This document shows, piece after piece, positions 55,574-60,620 of a stretch of DNA of 64,000 nt. Under the pieces are notes generated by a model. That model saw nothing but the letters and a program-made list of their open reading frames with translations, was not told the DNA's origin and searched no databases. How positions within the stretch are numbered: the stretch's first letter is position 1; every line of letters starts with the position of its first letter. Source of the stretch: Eledone cirrhosa (taxonomy: Eukaryota); assembly GCA_964016885.1 (NCBI GenBank), contig OZ024751.1, positions 22,444,001 to 22,508,000 of the forward strand, given 5' to 3'. A program made the position numbers and the translations under genes.

Positions 55574-55759
55574 AAGAGTATGACCCCGACGGCAGAGCTC
55601 AAGCCGTTTCGACGGCAATTTCTGGACTAAAGTAAGAGTTTTTTTAGTCTCAACCTGCCGTCGGGGTCATACTTTCTCCTATTACCCACCCTACTACTCT
55701 AAGTATTGAGTACTCTGGTGGGTTATGGCACATCTGGTTCCTTACCACAACTCCTTCGT
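55574..55759 (+). mobile_element. Family HP hairpin element
   Basis: gtatgaccccgacggcag...ctgccgtcggggtcatac plus conserved body, between (TA)n tracts. Confidence 0.85.
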
Positions 55760-56100
55760 TATATATATATATATATATATATATATATATATATATATAT
55801 ATATATATATATATATATATATATATATGTGTATATATATATATATATATATATATATATATGTATATATATATATATATATATATATATATATATATAT
55901 ATATATATATATATATATATATATATATATATATATATATATATATATATATGTGTATATATATATATATATATATATATATATATATATATGTATATAT
56001 ATATATATATATATATATATATGTATATATATATATATATCCAAAATTAAGATAAATTAAATTAAATTAAATTAAATTAAGGGTGTCATGCCGGATAGAC

Positions 56101-56288
56101 GTATGACTCCGACGGCAGAGCTCAAGCCGTTTCGACGGCTATTTCTGGACAGTCCAGAAATAGCCGTGGAAACGGCTTGAGCTCTGCCGTCGGGGTCATA
56201 CCTTTTCCTATTTCCCACTCTACTACTCTAAGTATTGAGTACTCTGGTGCGTTATGGTCCACCTGGTTCCTTACCACATTTCCTTCGT
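56101..56288 (+). mobile_element. Family HP hairpin element (about 50-bp arms)
   Basis: gtatgactccgacggcagagctcaagccgtttcgacggctatttctggac a gtccagaaatagccgtggaaacggcttgagctctgccgtcggggtcatac plus body. Confidence 0.88.
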
Positions 56289-56637
56289 TATATATATATA
56301 TATATATATATATATATATATATATATATATATATATATATATATATATATGTATATATATATATATAAATATTCTATGGCGGTTGGTAGCGAATAGATT
56401 GCTGTCGTTTATTTATCTACTATTTCTTCATAGGTGCCTTTTAATCTTATAGCCTGGTTTAATTGGTTTTATGTGTGGTTAATTATGCTAATTGGGAGAG
56501 GAAATGGTGTTTATATATTATCAAATGATTCTATGGACATACTTTATAGTATATATATATATATATATATATATATATATATATATATATATATATATAT
56601 ATACAATATATGGAAACTATATTTATAAAACCATATC

Positions 56638-56703
56638 TATTTCATTATATATATTTCAGGGATATCATATTAACAATATGCTATGCCTTCCTCAGACAAA
56701 ATA
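56638..56703 (-). ncRNA. Type I hammerhead motif (family HH-A), inverted copy
   Basis: Reverse complement of 56873-56938, here with an intact A-U pair closing stem II. Confidence 0.72.
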
Positions 56704-56872
56704 CAATATAAACAGTTTTATAGATAAATATATTCGACATACCTTAATAACACCGACTTGCATTTGGAGAGGTTCAAACAGGCAGTTTTAACCTCTGTTT
56801 TAACCTCTCCAAATGCAAGTCGGTGTTATTAAGGTATGTCGAATATATTTATCTATAAAACTGTTTATATTG

Positions 56873-56938
56873 TATTTTGTCTGAGGAAGGCATAGCATAT
56901 TGTTAATATGATATCCCCGAAATATATATAATGAAATA
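56873..56938 (+). ncRNA. Type I hammerhead motif (family HH-A)
   Basis: tattttgt-CTGAGGA-aggcatagcatatt gtt aatatgatatcccc-GAA-atatatat-A-atgaaata. Confidence 0.68.
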
Positions 56939-57379
56939 GATATGGTTTTATAAATATAGTTTCCATATATTGTAAATATACTCCAAATATTTGTCGAGTG
57001 CTTTTATATCAGTTATAAATATTTACTAGTTGTAACCCAACAATTTTAAATATAACTTTCCATATATATATATATATATATTTATGTCTGTGTGTATACA
57101 TATATATGTGTGTGTGTATATATATATGTCTGTGTATGTATATATATATATATATATATATATATATATATATATATATATATATATATATATATATATA
57201 TATATATTAGAATTGGAGCTCTGAAATACATTAAGCATAAAGTGTATTGCAAAATACACTATATATACATTCATATATATATATATATATATATATATAT
57301 ATATGTATGTATATAAGCACACAAGACGGACGTCTACAATTAACAATAACAAATTTCACTCCGGGGTACAAATCAACCC

Positions 57380-57478
57380 GAGTCTATAGGAGACATTTAT
57401 CCACGATGTCGCGTTGGGGCTAAATCGGAGACACACATGATTGGGAAACATTCCTTACCCCCACAGCCATACCTGCGA
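57380..57478 (-). mobile_element. Degenerate SINE family 3 head
   Basis: Reverse complement begins cgcaggtatggctgtgggggtaagg, similar to 60750-60830. Confidence 0.55.
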
Positions 57479-57512
57479 CTATTGGCTTTATTTCTATTAT
57501 TATCTTTTCACT

Positions 57513-57704
57513 AGGGCGGTGGATTGGCAGTATTGGTAGAGGGTCGGATGCCATGCTTTGACGCATAGAGTTACAGCCCTTGCCATTCTGAGTTCAAATC
57601 CCGCCGAGGTTAACTTTGCCTTTCATCCTTACTGGGTCGATAAAATAAAGTACCAGTAATACACTGGGTAATTGCTGGTCTTGTGCCTAACGTAGAAACA
57701 ATTA
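57513..57704 (+). mobile_element. SINE family 1 (short type), full length
   Basis: High identity to 4308-4502. Confidence 0.9.
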
Positions 57705-58004
57705 TCTTTTCACTTTATTTTTCTTACCTCATTACTAACTACGAAAATAATTGACTATTTCGAAATGTGTAAATTACAGCAACGAAACCGTTTTGTAAAT
57801 TGCAATTAGCAAATTACTGCTACGTAATATTATACTTAATTACAGCAATTAGTAGTGAATGACTAATTAAATTGGACTATTTTAAAAGGTTGTGTAGATA
57901 TTATATTGCATTTCTGCAGTCGCTGCACATATATAGAAACATTAGTTTATATATATATATATATATATATATATATATATATATATATATATATATATAT
58001 ATAT

Positions 58005-58170
58005 ATACACTGCTTCTATATATGTGCAGCAAATTCACACACATGTATATACTGTATATATATATATATATATATATATATATATATATATATATATATA
58101 TATATATATATATATATATACAGTATATACATGTGTGTGAATTTGCTGCACATATATAGAAGCAGTGTAT
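58005..58170. repeat. Palindrome with ~50-bp unique arms centred on (TA)n
   Basis: acactgcttctatatatgtgcagcaaattcacacacatgtatatactg / cagtatatacatgtgtgtgaatttgctgcacatatatagaagcagtgt. Confidence 0.93.
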
Positions 58171-58239
58171 GTGTATATATATATATATATATATATATAT
58201 ATATATATACATATGTATGTATATATATGTATATATATA

Positions 58240-58357
58240 ACGTTCTTGAGTTCTGCCGTCGGGGTCATACTTTTTCCTATTTCCCACTCTACTACCCTAA
58301 GTATTGAGTACTCTGGTGCGTTATGGTCCATCTGGTTCCCTACCACAACTCCTTCGT
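58240..58357 (+). mobile_element. Family HP element without the left hairpin arm
   Basis: ttgagttctgccgtcggggtcatac plus conserved body and (TA)n. Confidence 0.85.
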
Positions 58358-58729
58358 TATATATATATATATATATATATATATATATATATATATATAT
58401 ATATATATATATATATATATATACATATACATATATGTATATACATGTATATGTGTGTATATATATATATATGTATATATATACATATATATGTATATAT
58501 ATACATATATATATATATATACATATATATATATATATATATGTAGATAAATCTACCAAAGGTTTACGGTAGTGTCCAATCCGTATGAAGAACTCAATGT
58601 AATCCGGATATCATGGAAAGAAGAGATCACTTTCGGTGAAAGATAAACGGAATACAGAGTCAAGATAAAATATTAAAAAATAATGAATAAAACAATGAAA
58701 CAGTTCCTTATATTAAACAAAAAAAGTTC

Positions 58730-58866
58730 ATTATTTAACGATCGTTTCTAGGACATATATGTGTTAGAATTGGCATGCATATTCAAAAGATCTATGTACA
58801 AAATTATACAAACTATCAAAGAGAATATACATACCAACACATATATATGCTGTCTTCAGAAATAAT
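58730..58866 (-). ncRNA. Hammerhead-like motif with extended stem II (family HH-C), inverted copy
   Basis: Reverse complement of 58888-59024. Confidence 0.55.
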
Positions 58867-58887
58867 CTTATTAATATTAATATTAAT

Positions 58888-59024
58888 ATTATTTCTGAAG
58901 ACAGCATATATATGTGTTGGTATGTATATTCTCTTTGATAGTTTGTATAATTTTGTACATAGATCTTTTGAATATGCATGCCAATTCTAACACATATATG
59001 TCCTAGAAACGATCGTTAAATAAT
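58888..59024 (+). ncRNA. Hammerhead-like motif with ~100-nt stem II (family HH-C)
   Basis: attattt-CTGAAGA-[long hairpin: atatatgtgtt/aacacatatat and ggtatgtatattc/gaatatgcatgcc]-GAA-acgatcgt-T-aaataat; the closing pair of stem II is a C.A mismatch. Confidence 0.55.
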
Positions 59025-59530
59025 GAACTTTTTTTGTTTAATATAAGGAACTGTTTCATTGTTTTATTCATTATTTTTTAAATATTTTATATATATATAT
59101 ATATATATATATATATATATATATATATATATATATATATATATATATATACATATATATATAGGGCAGGAGGCCACTGTTTCATGATGTTGCTATAGAA
59201 ACTTGCTACAGTTATTGTAGACTAAGTGAAGAATATTTACACTTGTGGGATTTGGGTTAAACATTTTCCTATATATATATATATATATATATATATATAT
59301 ATATATATATATATATATGTGTGTGTGTGTGTGTGTGTGTGTGTGTGTGTGTGTGTGTGTGTGTGTGTGTGCGTGTGTGTGTGTGTGTGTGTCTAAACAG
59401 ATCTGCTAGAAATGGGAGTTTACCCTACGTGTATATATATTTATATATATATATATATATATATATATATATATGTGTGTGTGTGTGTGTGTGTGTGTGT
59501 ATGTGTGTATGTGTGTGTGTGTGTACATAT

Positions 59531-60404
59531 ACGGTAGGATGTAGGAATTGAGAAATATCTTAGCGTATAGGTCTTGGCCAGATGTGAAATATAGACCCAC
59601 GATACCAGTTGCAGATCTGGGCAAAATACGAAATGTATGTAAAGCCTTCTCTAGTCTTAGGCGAGATGTGAAATATAGACGGCAGAAACCAGGTTACATG
59701 TCTCTGCAGGATATGAAATGTATGTAAAGCCTTCTATAGTCTGAGGCGAGATGTGAAATATAGACGGCAGAAACCAGGTTACATGTCTGTGCAGGATATG
59801 AAATGTATGTAAAGCCTTCTCTAGTCTTAGGCGAGTTGTGAAATATAGACGGCAGAAGCCAGGTTACATGTCTGTGCAGGATATGAAATGAAGGCAGCAT
59901 TTCAAACTAATTATTTTAGTAGCCAATGCTAAGTACATATGATTTATGTATGGATTACGGGTACATGCATTTACATGTAATTTACAAGCTGTACTTAGAG
60001 CACAACAGAATTAAAAAACAAACAAACTAACTAAAACATAAGAAGAGTAGCCTCCCACCCCCAATCCCTTCATAATCATAGGCCCATGACAATACATCAC
60101 CCTATTGCTATCCATTTCCACCTTCGTTCTAGGCTGGTAGTCATTAGAAAACTATACAATGCCGGACTATAAAATGGCTTTATATACATTTTCTTTCCGA
60201 CCCTTTACACAATTTTGTGTTGCAGTTGTTGTAGGATAGATTTCGGGATTGAGTCAGTCGAATCGATTATAGATCATATCTTATACCCCCCTCCCCCTAT
60301 TCTACGGAAATATCGATCATGAACCTTACATGAAAATATTCAAAATATTTCACATCTGGCCTAGGCCTAGACGCTACAAATATTACCCAATTCACATCCT
60401 ACCG
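59531..60404. mobile_element. Non-autonomous TIR element (~60-bp imperfect TIRs) with an internal ~85-bp tandem array (59581-59890)
   Basis: acggtaggatgt...ggccagatgtgaaatat versus atatttcacatctggcc...acatcctaccgt. Confidence 0.7.
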
Positions 60405-60461
60405 TGTCTATATATATATATATATATATATATATATATATATATATATTTATATATATAT

Positions 60462-60620
60462 AAGAAAAGAGACAGGACCCCGACGGCTGAGCTGCGGCCG
60501 TTTCGACAGCTAGATCCGAGTTGGGATCTAGCTGTCGAATCGGCCGGAGCTCAGCCGTCGGGGTCCTGACTCTTTTCCTATTATCGACTCTACAACCCTA
60601 AGTATCGAGTACTCTGGTGC
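60462..60620 (+). mobile_element. Family HP hairpin element, divergent subfamily
   Basis: caggaccccgacggctgagctgcggccgtttcgacagctagatcc gagttg ggatctagctgtcgaatcggccggagctcagccgtcggggtcctg plus body, between (TA)n tracts. Confidence 0.85.

Follow-up and report, generated by a model that had tools for sequence, protein, structure and literature searches.

HP, a Family of Short Hairpin Elements in (TA)n That May Represent Truncated Ends of a Penelope-like Retrotransposon

RESULTS

The HP elements are, on balance, probably the ends of a Penelope-like retrotransposon (PLE) that targets (TA)n, strongly shortened on the 5' side; two cDNAs would have been joined head to head, leaving behind a likely 3' half of a hammerhead. 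The best reading of the sequence is of a retroelement carrying the 3' half of a putative type I hammerhead ribozyme; HP is likely to be a new family, with an arrangement already known for PLEs. Seven copies were verified in the window (the whole 64-kb stretch of DNA analyzed), and a profile search with filters off gave no eighth copy within it. They are located as follows.

18450–18475, plus strand: HP stub, which ends at the internal TA where inverted arms begin; tail absent
42705–42832, plus strand: copy 42704, with a short inverted arm (42705–42732), body from the putative cleavage site, and tail; left flank (GT)n
42895–43007, plus strand: copy 42894, with an inverted arm (42895–42921) covering sequence missing from its own body, the start of which lies about 14 nt past the putative cleavage site
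55573–55654, minus strand: copy 55574, left part, with inverted arm (55573–55631), 11-nt loop (55632–55642), 7-nt arm remnant (55643–55649) and 5-nt filler
55655–55761, plus strand: copy 55574, body and tail into (TA)n; the body begins 8 nt upstream of the putative cleavage site
56095–56150, minus strand: copy 56101, inverted arm, with 48/50 matches to its own body and a degenerate outer end
56151–56290, plus strand: copy 56101, body and tail into (TA)31
58245–58359, plus strand: copy 58240, body from loop III on, plus tail, without a real inverted arm
60461–60523, minus strand: copy 60462 (second subfamily), left part, with inverted arm (60461–60518, 52/57 matches) and 5-nt loop
60524–60623, plus strand: copy 60462, body with a short tail into (TA)20

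Ends, Tail, and Inverted Arms

As a sequence-only reading had proposed, the copies share a 3' body that runs into (TA)n: the right end lies in (TA)n in all seven, five stopping at CTTCGTTA, copy 60462 earlier, at GGTGCATA, and the stub at TTCCTA. The left flank is (TA)n in five copies, (GT)n in one and other sequence in one, and insertion was without clear target duplication. The tail of about 80 nt is present on the body side only, bounded by TTCCTA and CTTCGTTA with one copy intermediate, and was never found alone or at the left side.

The hairpins of differing length described by the same reading are present in most copies, five of the seven having a real inverted arm, that is, an inverted 5'-truncated copy of the 3' end placed head to head with the body, but copy 58240 and the stub show no more than 3–4 nt. 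The HP body contains 10 TA sites, and the arms start near-fixed at one of them; their outer ends are exactly at the TA of TTCCTA in three of five and a few bases off, with an indel, in the other two. The inner junctions vary. Three arms (55574, 42704, and 42894) include sequence missing from their own body, copies 56101 and 60462 are almost perfectly symmetric, and arms diverge from their own bodies by 4–10%. When hairpin centers were mapped over the seven copies, which are possibly not independent events, the three longest were found to stop 13–21 nt upstream of GAAA, but none of the seven is centered on stem III, nor on other hairpins in the known sequence.

The Putative Hammerhead Half

56169–56197, plus strand: putative hammerhead 3' half of copy 56101 (function presumed), with GAAA at 56169–56172, stem III at 56173–56189, UC at 56190–56191 (predicted cut after 56191) and the stem I 3' arm at 56192–56197

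The hammerhead 3' half (GAAA, stem III, GUC, GGGGUC) is found in both HP subfamilies, and GAAA, stem III and NUH are present in three of three long copies on at least one arm; stem III consists of 4 bp plus an A-U, with a 9-nt loop. The view that the longest copies read as half a hammerhead is correct for the plus strand of copy 56101 (GAAACGGC), but copy 60462 has GAAT there and copy 55574 is without the segment, so that in these two the half motif was read from the inverted arms, in 55574 as GAAA-stem III on the minus strand. CUGANGA is missing from all seven copies on either strand, as had been stated (pattern [CT]TGAN[GA]A), the nearest occurrence to any copy being in unrelated flank 117 nt upstream of 42704, and HP is therefore not a complete ribozyme. 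A search of the window for stem I, core, and the start of stem II with up to 3 mismatches gave no match. A type II/III permutation was considered and rejected: although some copies have CUGA after GGGGUC, it never extends to CUGANGA, and the 56101 subfamily lacks it. The proposed equivalence of the hairpin to hammerhead stem II had to be abandoned as evidence, because the putative stem II is by construction the center of the inverted repeat and is not independent support for a ribozyme; the native 5' arms of stems I and II are indistinguishable from the inverted copy.

It should be noted that the half motif had been named before the shuffle test. When the 137-nt body was dinucleotide-shuffled 20000 times, the combination GAAA, 4-bp stem and UH arose in 0.12% of cases (0.6% with either strand counted); for the 60462 arm the figure was 0.025% (0.15% with either strand counted). 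It is common window-wide, however: shuffled windows have 5.4 on average, and of the 18 real occurrences 14 are outside HP. The subfamilies are identical at 20 putative ribozyme positions versus 54 of 65 elsewhere (one-sided Fisher p = 0.04, with two unalignable segments left out); GAAA, stem III and NUH are invariant and hence offer no covariation. Single-arm folding gave z-scores that were not significant, and for the natural half sequences the predicted minimum was a fold other than stem III. Rfam reported no hammerhead in HP, nor any in the whole window among 150 of 464 matches listed; the negative for HP carries no weight, because Rfam also failed to recognize the motifs of families B and C described below.

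Neighboring Families and Other Palindromes

4802–5120, plus strand: family B, second copy, without inverted arm; hammerhead motif at 4844
54875–55552, minus strand: family C, with 188-nt identical arms, 240-nt spacer and 62-nt tail; hammerhead motif with U3-A8 core on both arms (55045, minus; 55444, plus)
56400–56980, minus strand: family B, palindrome with 176/178 matches; type I hammerhead motif at 56695 (minus), internal (TA)n, and shared downstream segment
58542–59087, minus strand: family D, palindrome with 201/204 matches and a tail of about 125 nt; hammerhead motif with 104-nt stem II region on both arms (58859, minus; 58895, plus)

The order (TA)n, inverted arm, body, one-sided tail, (TA)n is common to HP and the unrelated families B, C, and D. 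The latter three contain complete type I hammerhead motifs in the orientation of the HP half motif; for each of B, C, and D, as for the HP half, the motif is sense in the tail-bearing arm. A strict type I scan of both strands of the 64 kb gave 4 matches, all in B and C (shuffled-window mean 0.17), and a long-stem-II scan gave 2, both in D (0 in 20 shuffles), with descriptors that were fixed after the motifs of C and D had been noticed by eye. All 6 complete matches are within elements that cover 3.9% of the unmasked sequence. The fold points of these neighbors are 109–148 nt or more upstream of the cleavage sites, with intact ribozyme motifs on both arms. The stem II region is 30 nt in B and 104 nt in D, the 204-nt palindrome of which is retained without central deletion.

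A separate palindrome at 58008–58167 is centered on (TA)33 with 47/47 matches; its arms, like those of C, are 100% identical. This perfect palindrome shows that DNA-level fold-back is also happening in the window.

Coding Capacity and Relatives

No reverse transcriptase (RT) or GIY-YIG domain was found by Pfam in the 150 longer of 197 candidate frames, and the HP copies are too short to include one. No tRNA gene was found. Two pattern scans of bacterial and archaeal genomes, which allowed for contamination, gave 0 matches each, and the plasmid collection contained no match; in phages, 16 near-identical records gave a 36-nt match (E = 9e-3) that was regarded as chance. No outside relative was found in these bacterial, archaeal, plasmid, and phage collections. 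Because no exact motif of at least 9 nt is shared with the relevant published PLE consensus sequences (one supplement), HP is not placed in a PLE clade.

DISCUSSION

Origin of the Inverted Arms

At the level of sequence, the published layout of PLE ends is matched by HP, B, C, and D. The near-fixed start of the HP arms, their variable end, and the non-body sequence in three of five fit priming on both strands better than a simple snap-back. The parent would be a (TA)n-targeting PLE whose enzyme nicks both strands of the microsatellite and primes a cDNA from each, one nick priming at the end of the tail, the other at the TTTTCCTA site. Each cDNA may come to an early halt, in the longest cases inside what is probably a long stem II, and the two short cDNAs would then be joined head to head by end-joining or by annealing at a stem; in the latter case the product would be identical to that of snap-back. 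Against both-strand priming is the symmetry of 56101 and 60462, which independent truncation explains only with a stall point. Against the PLE reading itself are the tail of about 80 nt, as compared with a published 30–40 nt, a stem III longer than the animal PLE norm, and the failure to find an RT or GIY-YIG domain, an outside relative or a motif match.

The sequence-only reading had suggested that the cDNA snaps back at ribozyme stems and self-primes second-strand synthesis. The common fold region of the three longest copies is as a native stem II would predict, but snap-back at ribozyme stems is not supported as a general rule, in view of the lack of any copy centered on stem III, the non-body sequence in three arms, the near-fixed outer ends and the distant fold points of the neighbors. 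A restricted form, in which a long native stem II is the point where a PLE cDNA folds back on itself to prime its second strand, while an endonuclease or annealing at the TTTTCCTA site sets the arm's outer end, is rather unlikely but is the strongest competitor. A long native stem II would account for the fact that all three copies passing GAAA fold so soon upstream of it, none reaching the core, whereas the neighbors extend far past theirs, and long stem II regions do exist in B and D. Consistent with it are a 5-mer common to the loops of 55574 and 60462, the presence in the 60462 and 42704 arms of the same variants as in their own bodies, the folding of a hypothetical HP parent as a three-way hammerhead (though stems I and II were built in), and the proposal of self-priming for PLEs in PMC3846280. 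However, the stem II evidence is circular, no copy is centered on stem III or another known-sequence hairpin, the neighbors fold elsewhere than at ribozyme stems, three of five arms require a later deletion in the body, and the near-fixed outer end requires an extra step. A bolder version is slightly more doubtful: a parent, PLE or retrozyme, with a long GC-rich stem II might have in it a built-in stall and fold-back primer, such that nearly every insertion would erase CUGANGA and produce the hairpin.

Less probable again is inheritance of the hairpin from a non-autonomous hairpin master, the copies differing through later deletions at the palindrome center. The near-fixed outer and variable inner ends, the nearly identical arms of 55574 and 56101 with ends a few bases apart, and the complex junction with filler in 55574 would be expected of such a master, but each arm is of the same subfamily as the body it belongs to, so that conversion would have had to recur, outside truncation, as expected if a hairpin master were reverse transcribed, is seen in no arm, and D keeps its long palindrome with the center undeleted. 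It is decidedly improbable that DNA repair at (TA)n breaks, by fold-back or template switching, makes arms beside any sequence and that the hammerhead half is chance. The palindrome centered on (TA)33, the window-wide frequency of the half motif and the clustering of most palindromes at 54.9–60.6 kb are in its favor, but the (TA)n of all four families (HP, B, C, and D) is outside the arm and not central, the HP arms have one start site, and all 6 complete hammerheads are confined to a small part of the unmasked sequence. The least probable options are an assembly artifact and an internally deleted MITE that duplicated a TA target: each arm has its outer end next to TA and the arms of C and of the 58008 palindrome are identical, but the shared 80-nt tail is one-sided and outside the right arm in six of seven copies, the left arm is missing in two, and the divergence of HP arms from their bodies is unlike fold-back reads.

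Significance

The origin of the inverted 5' copies of PLEs and the role of their ribozymes are given as open questions in the literature, as represented by PMC8557442, PMC11167929 and PMC3846280. On the present reading, truncated PLE ends with both strands primed, HP is ordinary PLE debris, of use chiefly for annotation: short (TA)n-flanked hairpins with a one-sided tail and hammerhead parts flag PLE ends that coding-based searches miss. The presence of several such families in one genome allows junctions to be mapped against ribozyme helices over hundreds of copies. If HP junctions do pile up in native stem II, the ribozyme fold would have a role in integration beyond cleavage; if stem II stalls the cDNA and folds back, a ribozyme helix would be reused for starting second-strand synthesis.

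Comparison with Known Systems

In L1 twin priming, a second primer creates an inverted 5' segment. HP copy 42894 resembles such a product, but in HP, unlike L1, the arm generally overlaps the body and its starting point is near-fixed.

Non-LTR retrozymes, as described in PMC7229834 and bioRxiv 10.64898/2026.07.22.740005, resemble HP as short units without coding capacity that have type I hammerheads and a more stable stem III, and probably derive from PLEs; they differ in being head-to-tail tandems with complete ribozymes, whereas HP is dispersed, inverted, and incomplete. Assignment of HP to this group was rejected, the only adjacent pair being 42704 and 42894, neither with GAAA or core.

In Adineta vaga, according to the part of PMC3846280 available, Penelope elements have head-to-head inverted pLTRs with palindromic junctions, for which the authors propose self-priming, and solo pLTRs moved in trans; there, unlike in HP, pLTRs of about 200 nt flank ORFs and the junction is not tied to a ribozyme stem. 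For Poseidon PAc of Anolis, PMC11167929 reports cutting and extension of both strands of the target, with reverse transcription beginning at two internal RNA sites bounding the tail. HP is similar in its AT-rich targets, and would be so in the extension of both strands and in two fixed start sites that enclose the tail on the 3' side of the hammerhead, but the Poseidon PAc ribozyme is complete, its ORF starts in stem II, and in that account inverted products were not reconstituted.

The closest comparison is with endonuclease-bearing (EN+) PLEs, which are characterized by an inverted 5'-truncated copy, a one-sided tail, hammerheads close to the 3' terminus, and a liking for (TA)n targets (PMC8557442; PMC3846280). 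Penelope-13_HM has an inverted 5' copy with the ribozyme on both strands, Hydra and Naiad families of cephalopods prefer (TA)n, and in animal PLEs stem III is usually short and palindromic (PMC8557442). Relative to the Hydra clade, Neptune, and Naiad, which carry a type I hammerhead near the 3' end, HP has the 3' half only, is without CUGANGA and, in the window, without an ORF, and has a longer stem III and tail. With these (TA)n-targeting clades HP nevertheless has in common its targets, strong 5' truncation, an inverted copy, and a one-sided tail.

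HP Copies and Their Putative Half Hammerhead

The short-repeat family HP (inverted arm, body, one-sided tail, (TA)n) behaves as the 3′ end of a Penelope-like element (PLE) targeting (TA)n; we consider this membership likely, summing over two-ended priming, snap-back, and an inherited hairpin master as explanations. The copies named in the sequence-only reading were all recovered by BLAST, alignment, and a profile search, which give exactly seven HP loci in the window.

Extent of the HP copies, numbered from the predicted cut after GCCGTC
56101: body from −41; inverted arm to −40
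60462 (second subfamily): body and inverted arm both at −36; 5-nt loop
55574: arm to −44, 11-nt loop, 7-nt remnant, and filler; body from −8
42704: arm to about −7; body from about +1
42894: arm to −8; body from about +14
58240: body from about −16; without a real arm
18450–18475 (stub): about −2 to +20

The arms agree with their own bodies at 48/50, 52/57, 19/21, and 18/20 positions, and three of the five arms hold sequence absent from that body. The right end is CTTCGTTA in five of the seven copies, about +62 in one, and TTCCTA in one; inverted arms likewise have their outer end at the TTCCTA site (exactly in 3/5, approximately in 2/5), and the 99 nt following the cut contain 10 TA sites. 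These positions place the hairpin centers as neither fixed nor clearly random, with outer ends that are near-fixed. At 42748–43005, the tails of copies 42704 and 42894 are identical at 82/83 positions and the segments right after GGGGTC diverge; this pattern may come from local duplication, conversion, or two templates.

HP had been read as half a hammerhead in which the inverted copy replaces the core heptamer CUGANGA. The putative 3′ half is present: at least one arm of each of the three long copies carries GAAA, followed by a 4-bp stem with a closing A-U and then UC. This motif arises in 0.12% of shuffled bodies (0.6% on either strand) and is not rare window-wide, with a mean of 5.4 per shuffled window and 14 of 18 real matches outside HP. 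The proposed stem II is the inverted repeat's own center and by itself is no proof. CUGANGA is absent from all HP copies, including the known 18–21 nt or more upstream of GAAA, and stem II of an HP parent would therefore need to be long. The 20 putative ribozyme positions are all identical between the subfamilies versus 54/65 elsewhere (p = 0.04 with two segments that do not align set aside) and, being invariant, show no covariation. When a hypothetical parent was assembled from pieces of the window, it folded into a three-way junction (stem III probabilities 0.77–0.99); as stems I and II were built in, this indicates no more than compatibility, and folding of the natural half sequences does not favor stem III. 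In its present form, HP is no hammerhead ribozyme.

Neighbors with Hammerhead Motifs

The strongest evidence comes from three unrelated palindromes interspersed with the HP copies; their three families together make up 3.9% of the unmasked sequence.

Family B, 56400–56980, minus strand: arm matches 176/178 (second copy at 4802–5120, plus strand, lacks an inverted arm)
Family C, 54875–55552, minus strand: arm matches 188/188
Family D, 58542–59087, minus strand: arm matches 201/204

Read on the minus strand, each palindrome begins and ends in (TA)n, between which lie in order the inverted arm, the body, and a downstream segment found on one side. With descriptors set after the C and D motifs had been noticed by eye, scanning the window for type I hammerheads on both strands gave four hits, two in the B copies and two in C (none in 85 of 100 shuffled windows; mean 0.17), and a long-stem-II scan gave two, both in D (none in 20 shuffles). 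The long stem of D has a folding z of −5.2; its motif (58895–59017) has an unusually long stem II region of 104 nt, because of which it would escape standard descriptors. The C motif has a U3-A8 core, a tolerated hammerhead variant; Rfam recognized neither the B nor the C motif. As in HP, the motif of each family is in sense in the tail-bearing arm. Fold points lie upstream of the cut by 136–148 nt in B, 109 nt or more in C, and 141 nt in D, all outside the ribozyme; in D, an AT-rich palindrome some 10 nt ahead of stem I forms the center, and the B junction carries a 12-nt duplication. In both B copies, a (TA)n tract separates the body from the shared downstream segment; either the tract belongs to the element or it points to self-targeting.

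Origin of the Arms

The most likely mechanism for the HP arms is two-ended priming with head-to-head joining of cDNAs. The element RNA would be primed by both nicked strands of the self-complementary (TA)n target, with one strand priming at the tail end and its partner at TTTTCCTA, after which the two cDNAs, both truncated, would be joined. Such priming would account for the near-fixed outer end and the stub stopping at it, as well as for the three of five arms holding sequence that their bodies lack. According to Frangieh et al. (PMC11167929), a PLE protein cuts and extends both target strands and starts at two internal sites bounding the tail, and ribozyme cleavage is dispensable for insertion.

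The sequence-only reading favored simple snap-back at the ribozyme stems, a single cDNA folding back and priming its own second strand. None of the seven copies is centered on stem III. In favor of snap-back, all three long copies halt 13–21 nt upstream of GAAA; two of these are almost symmetric, the loops of two copies have a 5-mer in common, and long stem II regions are present in the genome. Snap-back nevertheless requires a later deletion for each of the three arms with extra sequence and a further step to fix the outer end. If stem II is native, snap-back and the annealing of two cDNAs would yield the same product and are inseparable within the window. Seven copies, possibly non-independent, do not suffice to demonstrate a hotspot. 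That an HP hammerhead with a long GC-rich stem II was a built-in stall and fold-back primer, erasing CUGANGA, seems improbable. Palindromic inverted junctions in Adineta were read as self-priming in PMC3846280; searches of literature that included few subscription papers found nothing relevant linking ribozyme stems with inversion junctions. A palindrome at 58008–58167, with perfect 47-nt arms around a central (TA)33, a layout unlike HP, and a partial copy of its flank at about 57924, is probably a DNA-level fold-back, which points to this process also acting in the window.

Other features of the window
19444–19567: older hairpin (32/37) that has a tail and (TA)11 and bears a weak resemblance to the 3′ part of family C (5/1000 shuffles scored equally well)
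26046–26188: hairpin (43/48) with one-sided tail and (TA)11, centered on a CUGA-like sequence; arms resemble a degenerate type I hammerhead by eye, a motif that the scans did not return
59537–60399: 56-nt ends in inverted orientation (84%), separated by about 750 nt with 77-nt tandem repeats, and terminal (TA)n; hammerhead core not found
31026–31065: 40-nt palindrome adjoining a remnant of the ~190-nt dispersed repeat, (TA)n not adjacent
4290–4501, 57496–57705, and about 20 further places: abundant SINE-like dispersed repeat of ~190 nt
28614–28784: single weak C2H2 zinc-finger match under the Pfam cut-off (E = 9e-5)

The window is non-coding, animal-type with an octopus-like appearance, and rich in microsatellites (226 tandem-repeat entries), with GC mostly 23–45%; a scan of 150 of its 197 candidate frames yielded neither an RT nor a GIY-YIG domain.

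Comparison with Known Elements

No relative was found outside the window, as is expected of collections that contain no animals. PLE and retrozyme hammerheads are described in PMC4209133 and PMC7229834. Craig et al. (PMC8557442) describe PLEs that prefer (TA)n, carry hammerheads close to their 3′ ends, have inverted 5′-truncated copies, and bear a tail of 30–40 nt on one side; cephalopod Hydra and Naiad families are among those they list. In the consensus 3′ ends of Naiad_Obim and Naiad_Ovul, as given in its supplement, a stem closes on GUC-GAAA with no canonical core upstream and a core heptamer lies downstream, a layout that is loosely HP-like; no sequence match was seen there. HP is likely a further family of an already known type of PLE end.
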